A stretch of DNA of 41,127 nt, from contig JBOHFU010000001.1 of assembly GCA_050699675.1 (NCBI GenBank), positions 1 through 41,127 on the forward strand. Reading direction: 5' to 3'. The DNA is from Pseudonocardiaceae bacterium (GTDB lineage Bacteria; Actinomycetota; Actinomycetes; Mycobacteriales; Pseudonocardiaceae). The notes under the pieces are model-generated. The model was not told the DNA's origin, did not search any database, and saw only the letters and a list, made by a program, of their open reading frames with translations. A program made the position numbers and the translations under genes. Positions 4,986 to 41,127 of this stretch are shown here, one piece after another; the first letter of the stretch is position 1, and every line of letters starts with the position of its first letter.

Positions 4986-5249
4986 ATGACAAACCAGAAA
5001 GATCGGCTCGAATCCTATGCCGATGCTGTTCGACTTGTCCATGAATTGCGTCAACGTGGTGCAGAGCCCGGTGATATTCAGGACGCACAACATGCGGCCG
5101 ATTCGATCAAAGAGCATGTGAGGGCCAATCGGACTACTCCCGTCCGAAGGACTCCGATGGCCGAAAAGCTTTTCGGTATCTCGGCGAAGCCCACTCACAA
5201 GGAGAAGAAGTTCCACAAGGAGAACGGTTTCTGGAAGAAGATCTTCTGA
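4986..5249 (+). CDS. Hypothetical protein (87 aa)
   Basis: ORF track. The reading is helical and charged. Confidence 0.55.
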   Translation: MTNQKDRLESYADAVRLVHELRQRGAEPGDIQDAQHAADSIKEHVRANRTTPVRRTPMAEKLFGISAKPTHKEKKFHKENGFWKKIF

Positions 5250-5264
5250 ATCGAGGGGAATGAC

Positions 5265-5381
5265 ATGGCAGCGAAATTCACGGCTCATTGTCCGCACTGT
5301 TCGTGGACTGACACATTTCGTTACGGATGGAAAGCTCGCGCAATGCGGAGGGCTCATATCCGCGACATGCACGGAAGATAA
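5265..5381 (+). CDS. 38-aa CxxC peptide
   Basis: ATG at 5265 preceded by GAATCGAGGGGA (5248-5259). Sequence MAAKFTAHCPHCSW... Confidence 0.4.
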   Translation: MAAKFTAHCPHCSWTDTFRYGWKARAMRRAHIRDMHGR

Positions 5382-5387
5382 TCGAGT

Positions 5388-5684
5388 ATGAGAAAGTTAC
5401 GGAGCGCCGGCAGTAGCTATCGAGAGCGCATTCAATTATCCGAGCAATGGGAATGCGCGGGCCCTTCTCTTCGAGAGAAGATGGAGGCTCGACTCTTGAA
5501 AGCCTGCCGGCGTTACGTATGGATGCAGACAGATCGTAAGTCCTCTCGGGATATCGAGATGCAACGGGGAATCATTCGAGGGATGGCTACTCAGCTCATT
5601 CTCTTTTGTGGGCCGTGGAATAAATCTGAACGTGATATGATCGTTGCCTTGGAGAAAGAATTCATGGCTAAAGCGAGGGGTTAG
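5388..5684 (+). CDS. Hypothetical protein (98 aa)
   Basis: ORF track. A partial leader, AATCGAG, precedes the ATG. Confidence 0.5.
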   Translation: MRKLRSAGSSYRERIQLSEQWECAGPSLREKMEARLLKACRRYVWMQTDRKSSRDIEMQRGIIRGMATQLILFCGPWNKSERDMIVALEKEFMAKARG

Positions 5685-5793
5685 TCCGAATGAATGCGGT
5701 GTGCCGGTAGTTGAAGCCCAGACTCCGATTGGCAAAGAGACGGTGCACACTGGCACATGGCGAAATGAGTGCACTCCAGAGAAGAGGTGAGCG

Positions 5794-5958
5794 ATGCCCG
5801 ACCACCAGCATGGCCCATCGATCAAGAATGCCAAAGTTTATGAGGCATTGAAGCGGAAAGGGTATAGTAAATCGAAAGCAGCGGCGATCAGTAATTCCAA
5901 GAGGAAAGCCAAAAAGGGGGGCAAGAAAGGTCGAAGGGGAGGGAAAGGTAGGAAATGA
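5794..5958 (+). CDS. 54-aa basic protein with Lys/Gly-rich tail
   Basis: MPDHQHGPSIKNAKVYEALKRKGYSKSKAAAISNS... then a KKGGKKGRRGGKGRK tail. The stop overlaps the next ATG (ATGA). Confidence 0.5.
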   Translation: MPDHQHGPSIKNAKVYEALKRKGYSKSKAAAISNSKRKAKKGGKKGRRGGKGRK

Positions 5959-6332: not shown

Positions 6333-6764
6333 ATGATTTATCTAGCGTCGGATTACAATCATCAGTGGGAAATGAAAAAGAAGCGAGCGGATATCGAGGG
6401 TCGTGGGTATACGGTAATCAGCTGTTGGATTGATTCTCCGCAGAGGGCTGCAGGGATTGGGGGAGTTGGCATTTCCGACGACAATCTGGCGGAATACGAA
6501 TTGTGCGCTATCCGTGACTTAGCGGATCTGGACCAGTGTTCAGAGTTCGTGATGTTTTCCACAGGAGAATTGTCACGAGGCGGAAGGCATACAGAGTACG
6601 GCTATGCTCTGGGAAAGAAGATGCTGATTCATTTAGTAGGCCCGAGAGAGCATACGTTCCATTGTCTTCCTTCTCCGTTCATGACTCACTACCCGACGTG
6701 GGAATTGTTCCTCTATATGTTGGATCAGAGGAATACAATTCCATTTCCGATGAGCTTCCGTTGA
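6333..6764 (+). CDS. Nucleoside 2-deoxyribosyltransferase-like (Rossmannoid) protein
   Basis: An N-terminal MIYLASDY strand and a late ...GGRHTEYGYALGKKMLIHLVGP segment resemble the NDT-family pattern (iYlAG ... Gt.fE.GyA.a.gK.vi). Confidence 0.45.
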   Translation: MIYLASDYNHQWEMKKKRADIEGRGYTVISCWIDSPQRAAGIGGVGISDDNLAEYELCAIRDLADLDQCSEFVMFSTGELSRGGRHTEYGYALGKKMLIHLVGPREHTFHCLPSPFMTHYPTWELFLYMLDQRNTIPFPMSFR

Positions 6765-6808
6765 TCAGCAGGATCTTCGGTCTCGATATCAATCAGAAAG
6801 GCACAATC

Positions 6809-7138
6809 ATGAAATTCCGCACTATGATCGCTGCCGTTACATTGTCAGTCGGAAGTCTGCTCTTTTCTGCAATGCCAGCAGGGGCTGTTCCGGATTCTAC
6901 CTGGGATCGACTGGCAATGTGTGAGTCCTCGGGAGACTGGCACATCAACACCGGCAACGGCTACTACGGAGGACTTCAGTTCAGCGATCGGACCTGGGAT
7001 GCATTCCGCGACGGACAGTTTGCTCATAGGGCGGATCTCGCATCACGTCGAGCTCAGATCATCGTAGCGGAACGTACTCTCGCCGTTCAGGGATGGGGCG
7101 CATGGCCGAGTTGCTCCCGTCAAATCGGCGTCCGTTGA
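6809..7138 (+). CDS. rpf: Secreted Rpf-like (resuscitation-promoting-factor type) transglycosylase
   Basis: Signal peptide MKFRTMIAAVTLSVGSLLFSAMPAGA. The rest, WDRLAMCESSGDWHINTGNGYYGGLQFSDRTWDAF...GWGAWPSC, matches the Rpf domain hallmarks. Confidence 0.8.
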   Translation: MKFRTMIAAVTLSVGSLLFSAMPAGAVPDSTWDRLAMCESSGDWHINTGNGYYGGLQFSDRTWDAFRDGQFAHRADLASRRAQIIVAERTLAVQGWGAWPSCSRQIGVR

Positions 7139-7160
7139 CAGATCACGTAAGCTGATCTCC

Positions 7161-7397
7161 ATGTTTACTATCTCGCGTGCTTTCCCAGTGGGTCCGGATA
7201 CGAATGCCGACCACTATGCAGCGTGTCGTCCCGAGACATATGGCAAATGGATCGAGGCTGTGCACAAGAACAAAACCCCGGTAGCCGTCGGGGATAAGTA
7301 TCTTTGGGTGGAATTCTCTTTGATTCCGCCGAGGATTTACAATTGTCTGATTATGGTAAAGGAGGGAGACGAGTATCCGCCGGCTGTCGTCGTTTGA
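7161..7397 (+). CDS. Hypothetical protein (78 aa)
   Basis: ORF track. Confidence 0.45.
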   Translation: MFTISRAFPVGPDTNADHYAACRPETYGKWIEAVHKNKTPVAVGDKYLWVEFSLIPPRIYNCLIMVKEGDEYPPAVVV

Positions 7398-8369: not shown

Positions 8370-8517
8370 TGCATTACCGGAAGAGCCTGAAGACTATACC
8401 GACTGGGAAGTGGATGAAAGGACGGATGCCAGGATTCATCAGCATGAATTGAATGACCAGAACACCGACGAGGATTGGAGTCTGTATTCAACGACCTCCT
8501 GGGAGGATGACGATTAA
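8329..8517 (+). CDS. Acidic 62-aa protein
   Basis: ORF track. The stop overlaps the amidase ATG (TAATG). Confidence 0.45.
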   Translation: MANLPEALLGRMDSALPEEPEDYTDWEVDERTDARIHQHELNDQNTDEDWSLYSTTSWEDDD

Positions 8518-9404
8518 TGCCTGCTCGACGTCCCCCTCGGGAAATTGTTCGTTGGACCAGCCAGAGAGGCGGAGCAAATCCACCGACCATTTTGGTCGCC
8601 ATTCATGAGAGCGTAGGAATTACCAACGCGTGGGATCTCGCGCTGTTCTGTGAGCGACGCGGAGTTTCCTATCACGACCTGGCAGATCTCACTCAGATGG
8701 TTCACACTGTCCCATTCGATGGAATTGGCTGGCATCTGAGAAAGGCTAACCCTCGTGCTGTGGGATTGTGTCTTGGTACTCCCGTGCGAGGTTATTCCCG
8801 AGAAGAATGGCTTGGGCCTCAAGTAGCCAAAGTGGAATACGCTGCTTGGTGGGTTGCGCGTACCTGTCACATTCTCGGAGTTCCCATTCGCCACATCAAT
8901 CATGCACAGATTCGAGCAGCGGTAAGAGGTGACAGATCTGCCGCGGGGGTGTGCACCCATAACGATTACACATTGGCTACTGGAGATGGAACTCATGAAG
9001 ATCCTCGAGGCTGGCCGATGGACAGATGTATTCAATGGGCATTGGAAGCAGCGGGACAACCGGAATTGCCTGTGCCTGCAGCAGAGGAGAAACAAATGGG
9101 CTACATGCCAATTCGAGTGCAAGGGAATAGCTGGATGAATTTGCCCATTCCCATGGGGAAGTCTTCGAGCGTTCTTAAAGCTGGCTGGCTTTCCGCTATT
9201 GTTGACGGCCCTGATCCTGGGGAATACGAAATCTGGTTTCAGGATGATGACAGTGGAATTTCCTATGCGAAACTTCAGATCGGATTCAAGGACGGACTTT
9301 CTCAGCGAAAATGGGTATCTGTTCCCGATGGTACCACTCAGGTCCGCATTCTTCACAAATTGAAGCAAGGGGGTGGACTTTGCTTCGAGATCGTGGATAA
9401 GTGA
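8517..9404 (+). CDS. Endolysin, N-acetylmuramoyl-L-alanine amidase (Amidase_2/PGRP fold) with an unassigned C-terminal domain
   Basis: IHESVG...SYHDL...GWHL...NPRAVGLCL and CTHNDY...GTHEDPRGWP match the Zn-amidase motifs. Confidence 0.8.
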   Translation: MPARRPPREIVRWTSQRGGANPPTILVAIHESVGITNAWDLALFCERRGVSYHDLADLTQMVHTVPFDGIGWHLRKANPRAVGLCLGTPVRGYSREEWLGPQVAKVEYAAWWVARTCHILGVPIRHINHAQIRAAVRGDRSAAGVCTHNDYTLATGDGTHEDPRGWPMDRCIQWALEAAGQPELPVPAAEEKQMGYMPIRVQGNSWMNLPIPMGKSSSVLKAGWLSAIVDGPDPGEYEIWFQDDDSGISYAKLQIGFKDGLSQRKWVSVPDGTTQVRILHKLKQGGGLCFEIVDK

Positions 9405-30677: not shown

Positions 30678-31682
30678 TCACGAGTGTAGTTTATAGTGAT
30701 CCAAAGGGTCCACCTCTCGGTAATTCAGTCGTCGGACGTTATCGGCATTCCCCCCGATCAATTCTGTGGAACATAGCAGGGTGTAATCACAATGAGTTTC
30801 ACACGTTCTATCCACCACTCGCTCGACTGCATCCCGATCCTCGAAATTGTATCGAGCCATTCTTTTCCGAGTCTTATACATTTCCTTGATTTTACGACGA
30901 ATTATTTCCGGATCAGCATCAAGTGCGTGACGAAAGAAAAACGGTGATTCCTGAGTTTTGTCTGGACGCCAGTAAACGGCTTTCAATCGTCGCAAGTCAT
31001 CGGCGTAATCTCGAGGATCCATCTCATTGTCGCGAATTACTTTTGCCAGAGTGGGATAGTCCGTCATAATCTTCCGTTTGCTGAGGGTGTTGTTCTTCAG
31101 AACTCTCGGAATTACGGGGGGCTTCATTCTGACAACATTCCAAATGAATCCCTTAACCTTTATCTTGTTTTTCCATGCTGCCCAGATATACGCCAGGTTC
31201 TGGCTTTCCAGAAGATACATATAAACACCAGGCATTCTGGTTCTGAGTTTGTGGTCGACAATCCAGATATCCCCGTTAGCATCTTCCACCAATAGATCGA
31301 ATCGACACCAGTATTCGGATCCGTCTGGCCAGACTGCGACTAGTTTTACCTCTACGTCCAGAATCTTCCAGCCGTATTTCTTTTCCAATTGATAATGCCA
31401 CAGATAGGATCTCATCAATCGTTCGCAGGAATTCGGAATATCTCCCACTTCTTCGTCGAAAAAGGAGTCCTCGTGCTGGAGAGTCAATTTCTCGTGCACT
31501 GCTCTCCAGTCATTTCCCGAGTAATGAGCCTCCAGAAGATAGTGAAACCACACTCCCATTCTTAATGGACGTCGAATGGAGCGCGGTCTCAGCTTATCAT
31601 AATAGGCATACATTGCCGCACGAGGACAACGACCGAATCGAGAGAGCATGGAGTGGGTAGTAACATCAGGCAGCATAGTCAT
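30678..31682 (-). CDS. PD-(D/E)xK exonuclease, Cas4/RecB-like with four Cys
   Basis: RFDLLVED...IWIVDHK nuclease core. An N-terminal Cys (GRCPR) plus C-terminal CETHCDYTLLC suggest an Fe-S cluster. Confidence 0.7.
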   Translation of the reverse strand: MTMLPDVTTHSMLSRFGRCPRAAMYAYYDKLRPRSIRRPLRMGVWFHYLLEAHYSGNDWRAVHEKLTLQHEDSFFDEEVGDIPNSCERLMRSYLWHYQLEKKYGWKILDVEVKLVAVWPDGSEYWCRFDLLVEDANGDIWIVDHKLRTRMPGVYMYLLESQNLAYIWAAWKNKIKVKGFIWNVVRMKPPVIPRVLKNNTLSKRKIMTDYPTLAKVIRDNEMDPRDYADDLRRLKAVYWRPDKTQESPFFFRHALDADPEIIRRKIKEMYKTRKRMARYNFEDRDAVERVVDRTCETHCDYTLLCSTELIGGNADNVRRLNYREVDPLDHYKLHS

Positions 31683-34110
31683 AGATTCTCTCCTCTGACA
31701 ATTCTTTCAGCTCTTCCCCATTTTCATCGGTGTCCCAGTGCTTCGAGCACTTGATATTGGCAATCAGGGGAACTGTTATGTTGATACCGAAGATCTTATC
31801 AATCGGCAATTCCTGCATGGTCGAGTGAATCAGCGGCAATGCCTCGGGCAGATCTGCTTCCGCTATCTCATAAAGAGCTTCATCGTGCACTGTCCCAAGG
31901 ACTCTCATATCGAGCCCACAGCGTTTCGCTTGCTCGTCGATACGTATGACACTCAGCAGAGTCAAATCGGATGCTAACGACTGCACAGGACTGTTAATCG
32001 CCTGCCGCTCGGCTTCATTACGCACACTTGCACTGTTCGATCGAATGTTGGGCAAATGACGAATCCGACCAATCAGGCTGGACACATAGCCATTCTCTCG
32101 GGCAAACTTCTTTTGCTCTTCGTGCCATCTGGCGAATTCGGGGAATGTCTGGAAGAATGTACGCCGAGCTTTCTTGGCTTCTTCTTCCGTGATCTTAATC
32201 TGATAGCCTCGCCACACTGTGTCAATGAATGTCCTCCAGCTCATTCCATAGATGAACCCGAAGTTAACCCATTTGGCTCTCTTGCGTTCTTCCTTAGTGA
32301 TCTGCTCTTTCGGCTTTCCTGTAAGCTGCATTGCCATAATCATGTGCACGTCTTCTCCACGTGCATAGATCTGGAATACAGATTCGGCATTAGCCATCAT
32401 TGCGGCAATGCGGAATTCCACTTGACTGTAATCTGCCGAAACAAAGACATAGCCGGGAGCAGCGCCAAACAATCTGCGCACGAACAGATTACGTGGAACC
32501 TGCTGGAGATTAACTCCTCGCTGCGGCTTAGCTTGCACTTTCTCCTCGTCGGCCTTACCCGAGGAAAGTCTTCCCGTTACTGTGCCGGTGAGCTTGTAAG
32601 TGGTATGTATTCTGTCGAGATCGTCCATCAACTCGTCGTAAGCCGAGAAGAATGAGGAAACGTACTTATACCACATTCCCCTTTCGAGCAGCAGATCGAT
32701 AACGGGATGATAGGGCCGGAGTTTGAATTTGACTTTCTCGGCCAAAGACGGCAATCCCGTTTTGGGGCTTATCTCCAGAACAGGCAATCCCAGATATTCG
32801 AAGAGCCACCACAGCAGGAACTTACTGGGATTGAAATTGACCAGATAGGGAGTTTCGTCAGGAACCCATTCCATTAACTGCGCTTCAATGTTCTCCAGCT
32901 TCTCTTCGGCAATCTTCCAATTCTCGTGCAACTTGGGTCGGTCTATCCAGATTCCACTTCTCTCGACTTCAGTTATCACACGAGAGGCTGGCATCATTAT
33001 CTTTTGAAAGATCCGATTGAGATTGGGCTGAGCTTCGATCTCTTTGCGCAGAGCGAAATACAGTCGAGCAGTGACCAGCGTATCCTGACCGTTATACTTC
33101 AGAACAGTGGGTAAGGGCTGATTAATCAAGTCATGATTGGGAATCTTCCAAGTGGGAATTCCCAGCTCTTCTCTTCCCAGACTCTCCAGAGCTTTCGATC
33201 GATTCTCGTCGACCAAATGAGCTGCCAACATCGTGTCGAATGTGGCGCTAATGAGAGCACCGAACTCGATAAGCCATCGGCAGTCGAATTTGGCATTGTG
33301 CGCTACGCGGACAGGGATCTTTCTAAGATACCTTCCGATGACTCGAAGAATCTGTCGCCATAGCCGGATGAATGGAGACTCGGGATGATACAGAGGCAAT
33401 ACCCATACGATCTCGGGATCCGTTGAATTCTTATCCCACAAGGTAAAGGCGATACTAATCATTCGGGAGTCGGGTCGCCATTCGTCGAATCCATTTCCCT
33501 CGATATCGAAGGCAACTCCGTGAGCATTCTTCAGTGCCTGAACCAATTCCCTCAGATCGGCTTTATTGTGCACTCGACGATAAGGAACTTTGCGCCATTT
33601 CTCATCGGCTTTTCCCGTGACGAGTGAAGCGAACAGACGGAGATCCCCGTAAAACCCTTTCTCATATCCCGGACTAATCTTCACCGCGCTGGGACTGAGA
33701 GTTCCCATTACTTTGGCTCTGCCGTCTTTGCGCGGATAGACTTTCCCGCGATGCTTCATTATCCCCGAATGGCCGGTGGTTGCTGTCAGTGCCTCATTAC
33801 CAAAAGACAGAATCCATTCAGGATTGACTCGCTCGATCTCTGCATCCAGATATCGCTTGCACGTCTTGACGTCGGATTTGTCGGGGTCCATTGACCACGT
33901 GCGACATTTGATTGCCGACGTCAGATAAAAGTCCTCTTCCAATCCAACATCGGATAAAAGTTTGGCAATTGTCTCATACTTGGCGGGGAATTTAGTAACG
34001 ACCATAATCTTCGAGTAGGCCGGTCCTATCCCCATTACACATCGGTCATCGCCCTCCGCCTCTTGATGCATTGGACAAAGAGTGCAGAATGGATCTCGAA
34101 TGTCTTCCAT
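31666..34110 (-). CDS. polA: Family A DNA polymerase with 3'-5' exonuclease and an N-terminal UDG-family-4-like domain
   Basis: Exo I FDIEGNGF. Pol motif A DYSQVEFRIAA, motif B RKRAKWVNFGFIYGMS, motif C TVHDE. The N-terminus has CTLCP...GIGPAYSKIMVV...AIKCR...CKRYL...FGNEA. Confidence 0.9.
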   Translation of the reverse strand: MEDIRDPFCTLCPMHQEAEGDDRCVMGIGPAYSKIMVVTKFPAKYETIAKLLSDVGLEEDFYLTSAIKCRTWSMDPDKSDVKTCKRYLDAEIERVNPEWILSFGNEALTATTGHSGIMKHRGKVYPRKDGRAKVMGTLSPSAVKISPGYEKGFYGDLRLFASLVTGKADEKWRKVPYRRVHNKADLRELVQALKNAHGVAFDIEGNGFDEWRPDSRMISIAFTLWDKNSTDPEIVWVLPLYHPESPFIRLWRQILRVIGRYLRKIPVRVAHNAKFDCRWLIEFGALISATFDTMLAAHLVDENRSKALESLGREELGIPTWKIPNHDLINQPLPTVLKYNGQDTLVTARLYFALRKEIEAQPNLNRIFQKIMMPASRVITEVERSGIWIDRPKLHENWKIAEEKLENIEAQLMEWVPDETPYLVNFNPSKFLLWWLFEYLGLPVLEISPKTGLPSLAEKVKFKLRPYHPVIDLLLERGMWYKYVSSFFSAYDELMDDLDRIHTTYKLTGTVTGRLSSGKADEEKVQAKPQRGVNLQQVPRNLFVRRLFGAAPGYVFVSADYSQVEFRIAAMMANAESVFQIYARGEDVHMIMAMQLTGKPKEQITKEERKRAKWVNFGFIYGMSWRTFIDTVWRGYQIKITEEEAKKARRTFFQTFPEFARWHEEQKKFARENGYVSSLIGRIRHLPNIRSNSASVRNEAERQAINSPVQSLASDLTLLSVIRIDEQAKRCGLDMRVLGTVHDEALYEIAEADLPEALPLIHSTMQELPIDKIFGINITVPLIANIKCSKHWDTDENGEELKELSEERIYDYAA

Positions 34111-34113
34111 TCG

Positions 34114-34857
34114 TCATTTCCTGTCGCCTCGCATAAGATGGAGATTCATGATGTGCATCACGAGATCACCGGCATTTACTCCCAGATTGTCACCCACCCA
34201 GAGAAGCAGTCGAGACGCCAGATAAACGTCGTTACGGAAATGGCGCACGAAATCGCAGGACCGAATCATGTATGTCACATTCAGCATTTCCCGAACAGGA
34301 TCGTACTGGAAATGATAGCCCAATGTGCAGGGAACTCGTCGATCCAGTGCGCCGGTATCTTCGGGGAACCAGATGGGAAGATATGCCTGTCGAGTGAGGA
34401 GATTGTTTTTCAGCAGAACCAGCACATCATCCATATCTCCGTAGGAATAACGAATTCCTCGCCTCACATCATCCGCCTGATCGTACACTGGCCAGAATCG
34501 TTCGGGATATGTGTGACTGAATCTCCCCGATTCGTCGAGGTGAATTCCATTATTTCCCTTATGCCCAGACCACTTCTCATGCGAGGGGGGCGGATTGTAT
34601 GGAATGCCCGACACTCTTTCAACGAAATGTTCATCCGCCCATGGAAGTTGTGGCTGCACTTCTTTTCGAAGAACTGTCAGATGCGGGACTGAATACACAG
34701 CGGTGACATTCAGGAGCTCGAATACATCATGATGACGGGAATCTGAAACGTCGAGTGATTGCCATGATCCCCGAGTGACTGGCTGCTTCCGCAGAATATC
34801 CTTTTCCAGATTTCTCCACAAGGACTGAAAAGATCCACTAATCCGGTACTCCGTCAT
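34114..34857 (-). CDS. Thymidylate-synthase-fold enzyme (ThyA-like; methylase versus hydroxymethylase unresolved)
   Basis: VPCTLGYHFQY (nucleophile loop), IRSCDFVRHFRNDVYLASRLL (compare [20 protein letters not shown]) and MNLHLM (compare GDTHLY). Confidence 0.7.
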   Translation of the reverse strand: MTEYRISGSFQSLWRNLEKDILRKQPVTRGSWQSLDVSDSRHHDVFELLNVTAVYSVPHLTVLRKEVQPQLPWADEHFVERVSGIPYNPPPSHEKWSGHKGNNGIHLDESGRFSHTYPERFWPVYDQADDVRRGIRYSYGDMDDVLVLLKNNLLTRQAYLPIWFPEDTGALDRRVPCTLGYHFQYDPVREMLNVTYMIRSCDFVRHFRNDVYLASRLLLWVGDNLGVNAGDLVMHIMNLHLMRGDRK

Positions 34858-35782
34858 AATTCAATTCCACCTTATCTGGATCGGGCTCTTTTGCTTTCTT
34901 CGCAAATTTTATCGTAAGGTCTTCCACGGACAAAGACGGCAATGGAGCAAACCTTTTGTTCGATTCCGTTTCGTAATCCTCTCCATATGGATAGCCATAG
35001 ACCTCAGTATGCAACCTCTTTCGGATTCGACAGAATGTAGCATAGGTCATTTCTTCGTACAGTTTGCCGCTGTTATCCATTGCGTCGATTTGATCAAACC
35101 ACTTTTTGGTGTGAAAGAATCCCGGACATTCCTCTCTCCCCAAATCCATTGCCCAGAATTCTTCTCTTCTGTCTTCGTCACCGAGTATCCAAGCCATTGA
35201 TCTCATTGGGTGATACTGAGCCGCTTCGAGTTGCCAGACGAATTGCATATCCGACACTGCTATCCCAGTGATTTCGGAGACAAGCTGAGCGGCTTTATAG
35301 GCGAGTGTCAGATCGAGCGCAGCAATGTATCCCAGATATGACGTTCGGCTGTGTAGTGTGATCTGAGGGCGCGGAATCTGTCGATATGAGAGAGCGAGCA
35401 TACAGCTCCCCCATCGTCGTGTAACGCCTCTTCCCGACTGACGCGGCTTCACCTCGTTCATTCTCATGGTGGCAATGCCACGTGCATTCTTCTTAGGAGC
35501 TATTCCCGCAGCGATTGAGTCCAACCAGTAATCAAGTGCGCCGGCGTTCAGATACTGATTCACCATCATGGACCATCGATGACGGGTAAGCCACAATGTC
35601 TTCAGATCGAAATCCCATTGAAACGACTTGGCAGAAGCAATGACATTGTGCATGGATACGGAAATAGAAATGTCATCGTCTACCTTGCTTCTTTTACTGT
35701 ACACCAACTCCTCGAGAATTCCTTCATGCAATTCCGTAACTGTGGGGTATCGAAAGGTGTGGATCACCGTAGATCCTCCCAT
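34838..35782 (-). CDS. Second, highly divergent TS-fold-like protein (tentative)
   Basis: Only a skeletal match: WGSCMLALSY, LHSRTSYLGYIAALDLTLAY, FVWQLEAAQYH. It overlaps both neighbours by about 20 nt. Confidence 0.4.
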   Translation of the reverse strand: MGGSTVIHTFRYPTVTELHEGILEELVYSKRSKVDDDISISVSMHNVIASAKSFQWDFDLKTLWLTRHRWSMMVNQYLNAGALDYWLDSIAAGIAPKKNARGIATMRMNEVKPRQSGRGVTRRWGSCMLALSYRQIPRPQITLHSRTSYLGYIAALDLTLAYKAAQLVSEITGIAVSDMQFVWQLEAAQYHPMRSMAWILGDEDRREEFWAMDLGREECPGFFHTKKWFDQIDAMDNSGKLYEEMTYATFCRIRKRLHTEVYGYPYGEDYETESNKRFAPLPSLSVEDLTIKFAKKAKEPDPDKVELNYDGVPD

Positions 35783-36318
35783 TCTCTCACTTGCTCGATT
35801 CGACGCTCCACTCTCTCTACCACCCGAGACTGAGATTGCGGATTACTGTAATCATGTTCCATTACCAAAAAATTGCTGAGCGGGAATCTGAACAGAAGAT
35901 CCCAGAATGGAAGAGATTCATCCTCGATCATATTGTCGGGCGGTCGACAGTATACAATCAATGCCATTGTACGGAGACGATTTACTAGGGGACTAATACC
36001 CGGGTCCATGAAATGAGGAGAAACTCCCTGTCTGTGCAACGGGCCATAGATGTACTCCCGGAAAATAGGATGTCCTTCATAAACTCCCATCGGCTTTTCC
36101 GGCCACAGTCGAAGATCTTCCAGAATCTTCTGAATAGGAACGTCTCCTAATGTCCCGAATTCATGGAATGAATGATGAACAGGCAATGCAAGCTGAAGAG
36201 AGAATTCGTTAACCAGAGTCGTTTTCCCCGACTTATCCGGCCCTTCGACAACCACCTGTGTCCATCCGGGAGGGAATGGGGGAGGAGTGCCTCTTTCGTT
36301 ACCGATTCTCCATTTCAT
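35764..36318 (-). CDS. P-loop dNMP-kinase-like protein, paralog B
   Basis: VVVEGPDKSGKTT Walker A, VYEGHPIFREYIYGP and IVYCRP. It aligns block by block with 36299-36820. Confidence 0.6.
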   Translation of the reverse strand: MKWRIGNERGTPPPFPPGWTQVVVEGPDKSGKTTLVNEFSLQLALPVHHSFHEFGTLGDVPIQKILEDLRLWPEKPMGVYEGHPIFREYIYGPLHRQGVSPHFMDPGISPLVNRLRTMALIVYCRPPDNMIEDESLPFWDLLFRFPLSNFLVMEHDYSNPQSQSRVVERVERRIEQVREWEDLR

Positions 36319-36820
36319 TGGCTTTCCACCTGCTCAGATGAGTTCGGATAGGTTCGTCGAGAATTCCCAGCGAATGAATGTGGTAACTGAATTTGACGTG
36401 TGGGATTCTTCTGAACAGTCGGTCGTAGGCATGGACGATCCGACGAAGATTGGCTACGATCTGCGGCGATTCATCCACAGTATTAGCGAGGATATGGCCC
36501 AGAGTGGGACGACAATAAATGATAAGCCCGTCGAGCACCACTCTCATCAGGAGAAGCTTCATTGCCTCACGGTCGTAGAATGCCAGTTCCATCTGCTGTC
36601 TGAGAATAGGACCGTGAATTCTTTCGCCTATCAACGGAAATCGATCGTAAATCTTGATCGGGGAATTGATCTGCCAGGTCTGAAGCTCGTCAATCATCCA
36701 TTGATAAGCCGATACTTCGGATTCCATATCACGCTTCACAGGAATCAGTTTATACATTTCCGACAATTGTTTCACCAGTGTTGTTTTGCCCGATCCGTCA
36801 GGGCCTTCCACGACGAGCAC
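36299..36820 (-). CDS. P-loop dNMP-kinase-like protein (thymidylate-kinase-like), paralog A
   Basis: LVVEGPDGSGKTT, IYDRFPLIGERIHGP (compare the TMK DRY..S..AYQ block) and IIYCRP. Confidence 0.6.
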   Translation of the reverse strand: MLVVEGPDGSGKTTLVKQLSEMYKLIPVKRDMESEVSAYQWMIDELQTWQINSPIKIYDRFPLIGERIHGPILRQQMELAFYDREAMKLLLMRVVLDGLIIYCRPTLGHILANTVDESPQIVANLRRIVHAYDRLFRRIPHVKFSYHIHSLGILDEPIRTHLSRWKANEMENR

Positions 36821-37097
36821 GTAATCTCACCTCCACTGCGGACAATGCCACATTGGCAACTTGAATCCATTCCGCGATGATTCGATCTTCCCCCTCATTT
36901 TCCACCATCGCTCGTGCAACTTCTCCCAGCTCTTCCATTCCGCAGGCGAGAACGTATTCCGGAGTTTTCTCTCCGTTCAGAATAGATCCCTTGCCGTGTT
37001 TGCGATGTGCTGCGAACGCTTCAGTCTGGAGTAACTCGATTACGTCTTCCCCGATCTCAGAGGTAAATGTCGAATCAACAACCCTTATAAAACGCAT
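36798..37097 (-). CDS. MazG-like nucleotide pyrophosphohydrolase
   Basis: 99 aa, all-alpha, with the acidic pair motif GMEELGEVARA...NEGEDRIIAEWIQVA. Confidence 0.5.
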   Translation of the reverse strand: MRFIRVVDSTFTSEIGEDVIELLQTEAFAAHRKHGKGSILNGEKTPEYVLACGMEELGEVARAMVENEGEDRIIAEWIQVANVALSAVEVRLRARRGRP

Positions 37098-37633
37098 TGC
37101 ATGGCTCCTAACGCGCAGACGGTGGCAATAGAGAATGCCTCAGATCGAGTAATCATTCCCTGGCTGACAATGCCGGTTAATCCCATTCCCTGCTTGGTAT
37201 TGGTATTTCCCCAGTATTCGTCTTCCGCATCACCGAGTTCCTTTCCTTCTCGGAGAATCATATCCATGATCCCGCGAGGCACCATTACTCCCGGACATTG
37301 TCCGATCCAGCTTCTTTCGTGAGCGACACTGTGAACAGACACCCAGCCATTGCAGATCCAGTGCTCGCCGACGAGAAAGATCCCTCCCTCAACTCCTACT
37401 CCGAAATCAGCTTCCCTCAATTTGGCCGCATTCTCTGATCGAGAGATCGCACCGCGCAATGCCTCTCCCTCATTCATCGGCTGTGCGGGAGTTCCACCAT
37501 TCGACACCTGCTCACTGATGAATTTCAGAGGGTATGGGAGAGTTTCCGAATGCTGACATTGAAAGGCAAGAAAGCCCCTCTCCACTGCCTGCAATTTAAT
37601 GGGATTCTTTGTGCCTGTCACTACAATGGTCAT
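37085..37633 (-). CDS. YjjX/DUF84-type non-canonical NTP phosphatase (ITPase/XTPase family)
   Basis: TKNPIKLQA, GTPAQPMNEGEALRGAISRSENA, EADFGVGVEGGI and GMGLTGIVSQGMITRSEAF align with E. coli YjjX blocks [44 protein letters not shown] and GAIGVFTAGKLTRASVY. Confidence 0.7.
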   Translation of the reverse strand: MTIVVTGTKNPIKLQAVERGFLAFQCQHSETLPYPLKFISEQVSNGGTPAQPMNEGEALRGAISRSENAAKLREADFGVGVEGGIFLVGEHWICNGWVSVHSVAHERSWIGQCPGVMVPRGIMDMILREGKELGDAEDEYWGNTNTKQGMGLTGIVSQGMITRSEAFSIATVCALGAMQCVL

Positions 37634-39096
37634 ACCCTCAGCAACCTTTCCGGAGCTCTCTTTACGGCACGAACGATTCTGCCATCTGTCTGCAATACAT
37701 CATAAAGCACTTCATCCACAGTATCCTGTGCCAACAGATAGGTAAATGTGGTCGATTCTCGTGACAGAGCGATACGATCACAGGTCTGTGAATAATGCAC
37801 GAAATTGGGAGTAAGGGAGTACCAAATCATTCGAGCAGAGAATGACAAATCAATTCCGTGAGCTGCCGAGTGCGGCTGAACCACATAGATCAATGGCCCT
37901 TTGTATCTGCGCGACTTACGCATTTCCTCACCTACCTGCTGACGCGGAATTCCCCCTCGAATCTGATAGACTGGCACTCGATGGCTCTTAGCCAGTTTGT
38001 AAAGTGCATCCAACTCGGGTTTGAATCGAGCGACGATGATTACCTTTTCCTGATTGTCCATGCAATTGTCCAGAATGGGATCTAATGTCAGCAGTTTCTC
38101 CGATCCCACTCGAATGATCTTTCCCTCGTCCGACGTGACGAATCCGCCGGTGATCTGACACAGCCTCAGAATCTTAACGATTGGGTAGCTAGCTTCGGCT
38201 GTCTGAGAGGCAATCTCAGCGACCATATGCTCTGCCATGTCGTCATACACTCGTGCACTCTGCATAAGTCCCACAGGGACTCTCTGGACGTCACTGGGAG
38301 GCAGATCGAAGCACTCATCACGCGCGACGCTGAATGAATCACGCGACAAGAGCTCCTGGAATTCTTTCATGTGGCGCGGGCGTTTCCAGACTTTAACTGG
38401 CACATCGGGAATTTCGATCCATCTGCCGAAGTATTCCTTGAAATCGGTGTAGTCTTCCCATTCCTCGAGTTGCCACGGACACAGGAATTTCCACTGCATC
38501 CAGATTCCATGCGCTTTATTGGCTTTAGTGATTGGGGTACCCGTCATCAATAGCCGATGTGGGAAGTCTCTGTGCAGAGTAACAATGGTGCGCGCTGCAT
38601 GACCCGACACTCTTTGAATGTGGTGTGACTCGTCGAGCGCCGCTACTGCTTTTCCTCGATTGGCCCAACGTCGAATGTCATCACGTACTCGAATACGCCC
38701 GTTCTTTCGAGATCTGCGACCCGAGGGCAATCGTGAGCCCGGCGTGCTGAATGCCTCATAATTCACCAACACAAACAGCAGGCAATTCTTTCTAGGCTCA
38801 GGTAATGCCTGCTTCTTTCGAGCCCATCTATCCCACATAATTACGTCGTACTCATAGGGGCAATGTTCTTTGAGTTGCTGCTCCCACACATCGATGACGT
38901 GATTGGGGCAAATGATGAGCCCGCGATCGATCTTTCCTTTCAGGAAGAGAATGCAGAACCAATCAATTGCCGTTTTGGTCTTGCCAGTTCTCGGATCCAT
39001 AAGAAGAGCGCCGCCGTATTCCTGACGAATGAGCCTCTTCAATGCCCGCACTTGATGAACGTACGGTCGAGTAAGAAACCGGTATTTAAGAGCCAC
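37630..39096 (-). CDS. SNF2-family helicase/translocase
   Basis: Motif I DPRTGKTKT, motif II ALDESHH, motif III LMTGTP, and a C-terminal helicase lobe. Confidence 0.8.
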   Translation of the reverse strand: MALKYRFLTRPYVHQVRALKRLIRQEYGGALLMDPRTGKTKTAIDWFCILFLKGKIDRGLIICPNHVIDVWEQQLKEHCPYEYDVIMWDRWARKKQALPEPRKNCLLFVLVNYEAFSTPGSRLPSGRRSRKNGRIRVRDDIRRWANRGKAVAALDESHHIQRVSGHAARTIVTLHRDFPHRLLMTGTPITKANKAHGIWMQWKFLCPWQLEEWEDYTDFKEYFGRWIEIPDVPVKVWKRPRHMKEFQELLSRDSFSVARDECFDLPPSDVQRVPVGLMQSARVYDDMAEHMVAEIASQTAEASYPIVKILRLCQITGGFVTSDEGKIIRVGSEKLLTLDPILDNCMDNQEKVIIVARFKPELDALYKLAKSHRVPVYQIRGGIPRQQVGEEMRKSRRYKGPLIYVVQPHSAAHGIDLSFSARMIWYSLTPNFVHYSQTCDRIALSRESTTFTYLLAQDTVDEVLYDVLQTDGRIVRAVKRAPERLLRV

Positions 39097-39166: not shown

Positions 39167-39562
39167 TCACTTCCTCTTCGGACAGGGGCAATACTGAATG
39201 ACTCTCTTGCCGAGCTTCTCTGCTTTCTCTGCTGTCCAACCAGAACCATATGTCTTGGACAATCGACAATGCACTCGCGCCATGTGAGTACAGGCTTTGG
39301 CGATGATGAGATCTCTTTCCTGATATCCACCCTTCCCGTGAAACTCGAATAGCGTAGCTCGAAAGATTACTAGACCATCGCCCTCCGAATAGCCGAACTT
39401 GATTGCTTCTTCCTCGACGAGAGTATCCACTCCCGGAGCTCCACCCGAGATCACCTCATCCGGCTGGTGCTTTCTGAGTAATCGACGAATGAATCGGCGC
39501 GTTGCCCTCTCGTCCGATAGATGATTGAGCACACGAGTTCCCACAATGGCGAGTCTCATCAT
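39167..39562 (-). CDS. SLOG-superfamily protein (DUF2493-like)
   Basis: LAIVGTR...VISGGAPGVDTLVEEEA is the Rossmannoid GGAxGxD signature of the DUF2493/YspA-type SLOG domain. Confidence 0.55.
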   Translation of the reverse strand: MMRLAIVGTRVLNHLSDERATRRFIRRLLRKHQPDEVISGGAPGVDTLVEEEAIKFGYSEGDGLVIFRATLFEFHGKGGYQERDLIIAKACTHMARVHCRLSKTYGSGWTAEKAEKLGKRVIQYCPCPKRK

Positions 39563-40041
39563 TACACTCCCGCTAGTGCTCGACGTGCGCCGCAGTAATA
39601 GCAGCGATAGGGTTCATCTTGGGTTAGCACAGAAACGTTACGAAGAGCACGATGCCCCTCGGGACAGTAACGAAATCGAGTTGGACGGCGGCAACGACCG
39701 CACCATTCGAATTGCGGCCCCCAGAAAGTAAAAAGAGGTATGAACACACGATGCACATCTTTTCCAAATCCTTCGACCACCCATTTGCCGGGTTCTGGAA
39801 AGATACGTGAGCGGGACGTAATGCAAATATCACGGCATTCTCCCTCTTTGTAAAGCCCGAGCGTGAATCGATAGGCATCAGGATACGATTCACACAGACG
39901 AGATCCCCATCTGCCGCTGTTCTTGAAAGCCCACACCTGCCACGGAAATCCCGATGTGCACGGAGTAGGCGAGGGGATCTGCTTCAGGTATTTCTTGTAT
40001 CTGGGCTCAGAGAGCAGTTCCGAGAGTGTGGGAGGAATCAT
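39562..40041 (-). CDS. Hypothetical Cys-rich protein (159 aa)
   Basis: ORF track. Zinc-ribbon-like CGRCRRPTRFRYCPEGH...CYYCG. ATGA-type coupling at both ends. Confidence 0.55.
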   Translation of the reverse strand: MIPPTLSELLSEPRYKKYLKQIPSPTPCTSGFPWQVWAFKNSGRWGSRLCESYPDAYRFTLGLYKEGECRDICITSRSRIFPEPGKWVVEGFGKDVHRVFIPLFTFWGPQFEWCGRCRRPTRFRYCPEGHRALRNVSVLTQDEPYRCYYCGARRALAGV

Positions 40042-40893: not shown

Positions 40894-41127
40894 GAATGGC
40901 CCAGGGACGTGTGTGCTGATAGCATGTCCTGCATTCTGCTGTAAACATGAGATAACTATTCCTCCTGGTCAGAGCTGTGCGGCGGTAACTCTATGCTAGC
41001 ATGTGATAACCGTCTGCTGAGGGAGAGCCCAATGAATCTTTCTTCCATTCTGTCGGTTCTGGACGATCTGCATTCCGTGAAAGGAGGTTATAAAGCACTG
41101 TGCCCCGCACATGAGGATAATGTGCCA
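40894..41127. repeat. Terminal direct repeat, copy B (matches 1-234)
   Basis: Same 234-bp block as the window start. It carries the leader and first codons of the primase-helicase gene. Confidence 0.9.

Follow-up and report, generated by a model that had tools for sequence, protein, structure and literature searches.

Two kinds of pre-replicative deoxycytidine (dC) replacement are the closest described relatives of the system considered here. In T4, the parts are gp56 (dCTPase/dUTPase), gp42 (deoxycytidine monophosphate (dCMP) hydroxymethylase), gp1 (deoxynucleoside monophosphate (dNMP) kinase) and cd (dCMP deaminase). The 5-methylcytosine (5mC) module of phages Xp12 and PaMx74 has a HAD hydrolase, a full-length thymidylate synthase (TS) homolog that carries Asp in place of Asn177 (N177D) and acts as a dCMP methyltransferase, a 5mC-selective deaminase and a dihydrofolate reductase (DHFR). 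We analyzed a contig of 41,127 nucleotides (nt) deposited as part of a Pseudonocardiaceae bacterium assembly (GCA_050699675.1, contig JBOHFU010000001.1); its whole length is called the window below. On its minus strand lie six overlapping genes, p1 to p6, for which a preliminary description made from the sequence had proposed a non-canonical pyrimidine pathway for DNA. That proposal is still the best reading of the block, but the signature residues point to cytosine as the target (Asp at the N177 position), rather than to deoxyuridine monophosphate (dUMP) and thymidine hypermodification through 5-hydroxymethyldeoxyuridine (5-hmdU). The new element is a pair of TS-fold proteins, encoded by p1 and p2; the pathway, as we read it, is otherwise of the T4/Xp12 kind.

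Published rules relate the active site of TS-family enzymes (positions are those of ThyA) to substrate and product. With N177D, dCMP replaces dUMP as the preferred substrate; hydroxymethyl products are found where L143 is exchanged for an acidic residue; and D169N is the mark of 5-hydroxy-dCMP synthases (PMC13326640). Asp177 is enriched among TS homologs on metagenomic contigs with modified cytosine (PMC8670742), and on such contigs TS-N177D, deaminase, PRA-PH and PolA genes co-localise (10.1101/2024.12.05.627091). The latter study, which makes no mention of a second TS-fold protein, obtained 5-methyl-dCMP (5mdCMP) from five of seven such homologs expressed with T4 gp1, and reported that selectivity for 5mC can occur among the deaminases to which such homologs are linked (10.1101/2024.12.05.627091).

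The p1 and p2 proteins

Both proteins had been described as TS-fold members, which held for p1 by sequence and for p2 by structure. The p1 product matched Pfam family PF00303 over its C-terminal half only (9e-8, 32 bits; gathering cutoff 24.3) and phrog_160 (9e-25). Its scores against the NCBIfam ThyA equivalogs were far under the cutoffs (31.8 bits vs 174.55 for TIGR03283; 17.7 vs 327 for NF002495), and by this measure it is not a standard ThyA ortholog. When a profile of 32 homologs was compared with the PDB, the best match was the CMP 5-hydroxymethylase MilA (5e-7). The second was a Lactobacillus casei TS chain that has Asp where other L. casei chains have Asn, and this Asp aligns with the invariant D210 of p1. 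T4 dCMP hydroxymethylase (1e-3) and E. coli ThyA (0.013) were weaker matches.

Residues of p1 were mapped through HMMER alignments with L. casei TS and MilA and a MAFFT alignment with E. coli ThyA, T4 gp42 and Xp12 TS; the ThyA and gp42 sequences in the latter are consistent with the PDB alignments. C177 corresponds to ThyA C146, R199, S200 and D202 to R166, S167 and D169, and H240 to H207. The position of N177 is taken by D210, that of L143 by R174, that of H147 by T178 and the R126-R127 pair by R156-Q157. None of 69 homologs from the fetched loci (see below) departs from the Cys, from Asp at N177, from Arg at L143 or from Gln at R127. All 69 have Thr or Ser at H147, and the D169 position holds Asp in 65 and Glu in 4. 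The protein ends 7 residues past the H207 equivalent and is thus without the C-terminal tail that closes over the folate. C-terminal deletion work on L. casei TS is said to have shown that this tail is required for the hydride-transfer step.

The p2 product belongs to phrog_13667 (1e-90), a family without an assigned function, and had no match in Pfam, NCBIfam or PDB sequences, in single-sequence searches or, for the PDB, with a profile. An AlphaFold2 model based on 32 homologs was obtained with a predicted local distance difference test score (pLDDT) of 91 and a predicted template modelling score (pTM) of 0.90. Foldseek found 46 PDB matches to this model at E<=1e-3, all 46 of them TS-family structures, with the dCMP hydroxylase AfhB of phage HY126, MilA and T4 dCMP hydroxymethylase at the top. 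The template modelling (TM) scores to TS-family structures were modest (0.33-0.46), so the model places p2 as a remote member of the TS fold, recognizable by structure only. Three residues, C127, R146 and D157, are each kept in 71 of 72 homologs and are spaced as C146, R166 and N177 of ThyA, with agreeing secondary structure. Tyr149 occupies the D169 position, and the L143 equivalent is Trp in 67 of the 72. Comparison of the p2 family with the p1 family by hhalign gave no significant similarity (probability 0.3), and we do not claim that the two are sequence paralogs.

The combination of a catalytic Cys with Asp at the N177 position, a feature of dCMP hydroxymethylases, is thus present twice, as C177/D210 in p1 and C127/D157 in p2. 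Because of it, both proteins are predicted by the published rules to be of the cytosine type. In this they would resemble MilA of the mildiomycin pathway, AfhB and RB69 gp48, which are TS-fold enzymes specific for cytosine nucleotides; MilA is the best sequence match of p1, and AfhB and MilA are the best structural matches of p2. However, MilA has Asp at 143 and its substrate, in an antibiotic pathway, is a ribonucleotide, and the 5-hydroxy-dCMP synthases AfhB and RB69 gp48 carry D169N and bind flavin. The D169N mark is found in neither p1 (Asp/Glu) nor p2 (Tyr149), so that by the published rules neither is a 5-hydroxy-dCMP synthase.

Other assignments were rejected as well. From gp42, to which it is distant (family profile E 1e-3), p1 differs by Arg in place of Asp/Glu at L143 and by Gln at R127; with Arg (p1) or Trp (p2) at L143, neither protein has the T4-type hydroxymethylase signature. 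ThyA identity is contradicted by Asp instead of Asn at 177 and by the loss of the Arg126-Arg127 pair and the C-terminal segment in p1. With Xp12 and PaMx74 the locus shares a TS homolog with Asp at N177 in a siphovirus replication region. The Xp12 TS is full length, with an R21 loop, E58, the Arg-Arg pair, the C-terminal tail and Asn at 143, whereas p1 is without these and is 23% identical to it over the core. As only Asp177 is shared, and the window genome encodes neither a DHFR nor a deaminase, p1 was not assigned as an Xp12-type dCMP methyltransferase. Xp12 and PaMx74 themselves were considered as carriers of the pair and rejected; a DHFR and a HAD hydrolase are nearby, but no p2-like gene.

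Conservation of the gene pair and its cassette

A tblastn search with p2 returned 85 phage records, all of them actinophages (infecting Gordonia, Mycobacterium (Muddy, FF47 and Maco), Streptomyces (Zuko) and Microbacterium). The annotated gene order in these genomes is helicase, "thymidylate kinase", dUTPase or MazG, a hypothetical protein (the p2 homolog), "thymidylate synthase", optionally a deaminase, and PolA. We also fetched 63 IMG/VR loci through p2, counting only loci of sufficient length in statements about pairing and flanks. Wherever an IMG/VR locus continues beyond p2, a p1-type gene follows downstream, and wherever a fetched p2 locus includes the flanks, the helicase and PolA keep their places in the order; the kinase was not detected in 1 of the 63. 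Extra genes are frequent in the fetched loci. In 52 of them a gene for a dCMP-family deaminase lies between p1 and PolA, and 44 have an NTPase of the dimeric-dUTPase family, in place of which a PRA-PH/MazG protein is otherwise found. Four p1 homologs were also picked independently of p2. In all four the cassette order was kept, and a member of the p2 family lay upstream of p1 (E 3e-28 to 7e-130). On one IMG/VR phage contig (L010, 5974-7904), two tandem p2-family genes stand upstream of a p1-type TS gene.

The distribution is not confined to actinophages. Genes for p1-type TS proteins were also found in phages of Pseudomonas (PMBT14, Almagne), Serratia (Serbin) and Brevundimonas. The three examples examined, PMBT14, Serbin and Strzyga, have the same layout, with an unannotated protein of 262-279 amino acids (aa) at the position of p2. 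Aligned with the p2 profile, the family of these proteins gave an hhalign match with a probability of 87.6% (E 3.5e-6) across the Cys/Arg/Asp core; the similarity is significant only with profiles on both sides, and the p2 profile against single Gram-negative partner proteins gave no significant match. In a Foldseek search of BFVD, PMBT14 gp48 was the third-best structural match of p2 (E 5e-8, TM 0.55/0.64). These proteins are remote homologs of p2.

The p2-p1 pair is therefore an old, fixed two-gene unit, present in more than 70 phage loci and not peculiar to the window. It is part of a widespread cassette (SNF2 helicase, kinase, NTP pyrophosphohydrolase, p2, p1, optional deaminase and PolA with a domain resembling uracil-DNA glycosylase (UDG)), of which the window block is a variant. 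We found no description of paired TS-like proteins in the literature; papers on wheat-phyllosphere phages and on SP15-like UDG-PolA proteins do not treat this module. The same families stand in the same order in Muddy (gp49-gp44) and in the Gordonia, Streptomyces, Microbacterium, PMBT14, Serbin and Brevundimonas phages, where the upstream gene encodes an SNF2 protein or a recombinase and the p2 homologs are annotated "hypothetical protein". Cassettes of this Muddy type have one kinase, an NTPase of the dUTPase_2 or PRA-PH type and usually a deaminase. The window clade differs in three respects: the kinase has an additional, degenerate copy, dUTPase_2 is replaced by a minimal MazG-like protein, and there is no deaminase, none being found within the cassettes of the metagenomic relatives L004-L008 either. 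The YjjX-type NTPase (p6) is confined to the window and L004, which is its closest relative.

This distribution alters the weight of an earlier argument, by which the doubling of both the TS-fold enzyme and the kinase exceeded the needs of dTTP supply. The TS pair is an old fixture of more than 70 loci, and it is the kinase that has been doubled, in the window clade only. Of the six genes whose co-occurrence had been suggested as a check, p2, p1, the kinase and an NTP pyrophosphohydrolase recur across phage loci; p3 is limited to the window clade, and p6 to the window and L004.

Some gene labels in Muddy (L001) can be made more precise. Its gp45 (6673-7215), labelled "hypothetical protein", is a dCMP-family deaminase (PF00383, 2.5e-18), gp47 (5007-5900), also labelled hypothetical, is a p2-type TS-fold protein, and gp48, labelled "dUTPase", belongs to the dimeric dUTPase_2 family.

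The gene block and its neighbours

The coordinates, strand and 4-23 nt overlaps given for the six open reading frames (ORFs) in the preliminary description, and their position directly upstream of the gene for the UDG-like/PolA protein, were confirmed (Table 1). For the longest ORFs, the overlaps p1/p2, p2/p3, p3/p4, p4/p5, p5/p6 and p6/SNF2 are 20, 19, 20, 23, 13 and 4 nt. These lengths depend on the start codons, and some would be smaller with alternative starts. The database entry for p2, for instance, has 309 aa, with a start 15 nt later and a 4-nt overlap with p3. Homologs are present in the same order in L004-L008, at identities down to 49%. Since each has such same-order homologs in other phage contigs, p1-p6 are genuine genes and not chance ORFs.

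Table 1. Genes of the p1-p6 block and its two flanks in the window
Gene	Position	Strand	Length (aa)	Assignment
PolA	31666..34110	minus		family-A DNA polymerase with 3'-5' exonuclease and N-terminal UDG-like domain; downstream end of the cassette
p1	34114..34857	minus	247	truncated, divergent TS homolog with predicted cytosine-type active site
p2	34838..35782	minus	314	uncharacterized protein of predicted TS fold, phrog_13667
p3	35764..36318	minus	184	degenerate paralog of the dNMP-kinase-like p4
p4	36299..36820	minus	173	Tmk/dNK-fold P-loop nucleotide kinase
p5	36798..37097	minus	99	candidate small MazG-like all-alpha NTP pyrophosphohydrolase
p6	37085..37633	minus	182	NTPase_I-T family member (YjjX/Mj0226-type non-canonical NTP phosphatase); accessory
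SNF2-family helicase	37630..39096	minus		upstream boundary of the conserved cassette

The two kinases are paralogs, as had been noted (35% identity, E 6e-16 by BLASTP). The p4 product matched phrog_761 at 1.6e-13, some of its homologs match PF01712 or PF02223, and its AlphaFold2 model (pLDDT 95.5) was closest in Foldseek to B. subtilis BSU20280 and YorR, followed by thymidylate and deoxynucleoside kinases. It has the P-loop GPDGSGKT, and Walker A, D59-R60 and C103-x-P105 are invariant in the family. With 18 bits against a cutoff of 83, it does not reach the NCBIfam Tmk equivalog. The profile check proposed earlier thus places neither p1 nor p4 among standard ThyA/Tmk orthologs; p4 is a Tmk/dNK-fold kinase and the ortholog of the single cassette kinase in other phages. 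The match of p3 to phrog_761 is weak (4e-4). Aligned with its orthologs from L004-L006, p3 shares with them an intact Walker A, E/D-G instead of the D-R of the "DR" motif, and the loss of about 16 residues after the CRP strand. It is a degenerate paralog without the catalytic Arg.

Of the two NTP-cleaning families named earlier, both are present, but the YjjX-type one is an accessory. The p6 product matched PF01931 over 160 of 162 profile positions (5.4e-36, 124 bits; cutoff 25) and scored below the NCBIfam YjjX equivalog cutoffs; its sequence makes it a clear member of NTPase_I-T. For p5, the match to phrog_1247 (MazG-like) was weak (1e-3), and p5 itself had no Pfam match, although Pfam MazG was matched by 6 of the 26 members of its family. 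A profile of these 26 members found MazG-like 1vmg as the best PDB match (0.004), then 2gta, 2p06 and 5ie9; a profile of four sequences had found none. Other loci have a dUTPase_2, PRA-PH or MazG gene at the position of p5, and the hhalign comparisons of p5 with these positional equivalents were not significant.

The PolA protein matched PF00476 (3e-81), PF01612 (9e-17) and PF03167 (6e-11), and the SNF2 helicase matched PF00176 (2.7e-14) and phrog_62 (6e-81); both genes keep their positions in all loci. PolA is presumed to be the consumer of the modified dNTP. By eye, its N-terminal ~150 aa read "TKFPA" instead of the GEAPG motif of family-4 UDGs and "LSPS" instead of HPSP. As these catalytic motifs are missing, the UDG-like domain may serve in base sensing or DNA binding and be inactive as a glycosylase. 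Every locus with the p2-p1 pair has a PolA of this type. Just upstream of the helicase gene, 39167-39562 (minus) encodes a 131-aa DprA/SLOG-like protein (PF02481 at 1.2e-6, sub-cutoff; YAcAr 0.03) that seems to be absent from L004-L006, judging by gene sizes. SLOG-type domains are often nucleotide-binding. The next gene, at 39562-40041 (minus), encodes a Cys-rich protein of 159 aa (phrog_13148, 7e-32) that is kept upstream of the helicase in relatives (153-161 aa).

Positions 1-234 of the window are repeated at 40894-41127 with 99.6% identity. This terminal duplication reflects a circular assembly or a terminal repeat, and the phage genome is therefore complete at about 40.9 kb. Its plus strand codes for a primase/helicase, an endolysin, the large terminase, the portal, the major head protein and the tape measure, and the replication module sits on the minus strand. 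Across all window ORFs of at least 40 aa there is no dCMP deaminase and no DHFR, and a Pfam scan of 36 window ORFs found no transferase domain of any kind, glycosyltransferases included. The preliminary description had likewise seen neither a dCMP deaminase nor a glycosyltransferase. The genome also encodes a protein with an Rpf-type transglycosylase domain at 6536-7138 (plus; PF06737, 5e-31), separate from the endolysin at 8517-9404. Such domains are typical of Actinobacteria and their phages. Together with the finding that the closest cultured relatives of p2 are actinophages, this makes an actinobacterial host plausible, as had been proposed, despite a guanine-plus-cytosine (GC) content of ~50%.

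Proposed pathway and alternatives

Weighing these data, we lean towards a T4-like pre-replicative pathway that replaces dC with a C5-substituted dC, and consider it somewhat better than an even bet. The block would form the nucleotide-precursor arm of the phage replication module, T4-like but with a different set of enzymes. In such a pathway, p5 and p6 would hydrolyse deoxycytidine triphosphate (dCTP), perhaps also the diphosphate (dCDP), to dCMP, clearing the canonical nucleotide and feeding the next step. There, p1 and p2 would put a one-carbon group on C5 of dCMP, as a hetero-oligomer or as consecutive enzymes. The modified dNMP would be phosphorylated by p4, possibly with p3, and host NDP kinase would finish the triphosphate. 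Finally, the adjacent PolA would incorporate it, giving virion DNA with C5-substituted cytosine for some or all C. Because the window genome encodes no deaminase, its dTTP must be supplied by the host.

With T4 the block has in common an NTP pyrophosphatase, a dNMP kinase and a TS-fold enzyme with Cys, Asp at N177 and Thr at 147, and most related loci resemble T4 further in having a dCMP-family deaminase and a dimeric-dUTPase-family NTPase. The domain set TS-N177D, PRA-PH, deaminase and PolA, which the cassette family shares, is also the one reported as typical of contigs with modified cytosine (10.1101/2024.12.05.627091). Unlike T4, the block has an obligatory second TS-fold protein, a kinase of the Tmk/dNK-like type, no glucosyltransferase and, in the window, no deaminase. 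As to the product, hydroxymethyl is slightly favoured over methyl because p1 has T/S at 147, as do gp42 and MilA, a polar residue at 143 and no C-terminal tail, and there is no DHFR.

Each TS subunit normally donates two phosphate-binding Arg residues across the dimer interface. The equivalents of this R-R pair are R-Q in p1 and R-G in p2, so that one Arg has been lost in each. The strict pairing, this loss at the interface and the truncation of p1 suggest that p1 and p2 form a hetero-oligomer. A different chemistry is also conceivable, since position 143 is always Arg and elements of the folate site are missing. A more specific version, that p1 and p2 are a heteromeric enzyme or an obligate two-step pair modifying cytosine C5 by a reaction new to the superfamily, is possible but on balance doubtful.

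Several observations count against the T4-like pathway. In p1 the R21 loop and the folate tail are missing, R127 is replaced, and no conserved residue aligns with E58, so that folate chemistry is not assured; the protein also departs from the hydroxymethylase rule, with Arg instead of Asp/Glu at L143. The MazG-like nature of p5 is moderately supported, and its motif (EELGE...E76xxQ79) has ExxQ where ExxD is expected. A dCTPase activity of p5 or p6 is a guess, and p3 may be inactive. For Muddy, GTE2, PMBT14, Serbin, Tlacuache, Almagne and Strzyga, and for carriers of the p1-p2 pair in general, we found no publication on DNA composition, and we know of no reports of unusual DNA from Muddy or the Gordonia phages despite years of handling.

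The preliminary description had itself offered an ordinary alternative, in which ThyA and a dTMP kinase, with degenerate duplicates and house-cleaning NTPases, boost nucleotide pools for canonical DNA. Public annotations do name the homologs "thymidylate synthase" and "thymidylate kinase", both NTPases come from house-cleaning families, and p3, with its missing Arg and ~16 missing residues, is in fact a degenerate duplicate. This cannot be said of the TS pair. The Asn that selects uracil is replaced by Asp in 69 of 69 p1 and 71 of 72 p2 homologs, p1 scores 32 bits at best against ThyA cutoffs of 175-327 and has lost the C-terminal tail, and p2 has been kept with a Cys/Arg/Asp set of its own, which argues for selection on function and not decay. 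Pool boosting is accordingly disfavoured and seems to us quite improbable. Thymidine hypermodification of the SPO1/SP10/M6 type, in which a dUMP hydroxymethylase makes 5-hmdUMP and a P-loop 5-hmdU DNA kinase starts decoration after replication, would explain why two P-loop kinases and two NTPases adjoin the TS-fold enzymes, and UDG-fused PolA is known in T-modified phages. Nevertheless, both TS-fold proteins have the cytosine-type Asp, the 36 scanned ORFs include no aGPT-Pplase, glycosyltransferase or other transferase domain, the fold of p4 is that of a small-molecule Tmk/dNK kinase, YorR-like, and p3 is without catalytic residues. We regard this as the least probable of the explanations considered, and very improbable.

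Another way to lead the products away from lasting DNA modification would be a thymidylate route, in which p1 and p2 make 5mdCMP and a deaminase converts it to dTMP for dTTP. This has been proposed for part of the Xp12 pool, is in keeping with the deaminase gene in 52 fetched loci, and has precedents in the 5mC-selective deaminases and the 5mdCMP-forming homologs cited above. However, in the window, whose complete genome has neither deaminase nor DHFR, TS-like products could not be converted to dTMP, and the cassettes of L004-L008 have no deaminase; moreover, Xp12 and PaMx74 use a full-length TS with DHFR, not p1 and p2, and in them 5mC still replaces C fully. We consider such a route improbable. 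More room must be left for p1 and p2 acting on a cytosine nucleotide in some other way, with a product not necessarily destined for DNA. They might carry out a flavin-dependent 5-hydroxylation like AfhB or RB69 gp48, use a ribonucleotide like MilA, or make a small-molecule or anti-defence product. The structural matches of p2 are headed by AfhB, a flavin-dependent dCMP hydroxylase, the sequence matches of p1 by the CMP-specific MilA, and p1 is without several folate-site elements. Set against this are the absence of the D169N signature (Asp in p1, Tyr in p2) and the location of the genes, in all loci, between a helicase and a DNA polymerase together with a dNMP-kinase-like gene, which fits a role in making DNA precursors. 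A reaction of this kind is rather unlikely, in our estimate.

If the T4-like replacement pathway is correct, hundreds of phages annotated as having a "thymidylate synthase" and a "hypothetical protein" make modified cytosine, among them Muddy, a phage used in compassionate-use therapy against Mycobacterium abscessus. This would bear on restriction and defence evasion, on host range, and on the sequencing and engineering of the carrier phages. It would also define a new two-component branch of the TS superfamily, which is already a source of enzymes for epigenetic sequencing. Should the chemistry of the pair prove to be new, there would be a large, unrecognized group of siphoviruses with a modified or new DNA base, comprising Muddy and many phages of Gordonia, Streptomyces and Microbacterium, along with PMBT14/Serbin-type phages of Pseudomonas and Serratia. 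Carriers of the pair are already in culture collections, which makes this directly testable.

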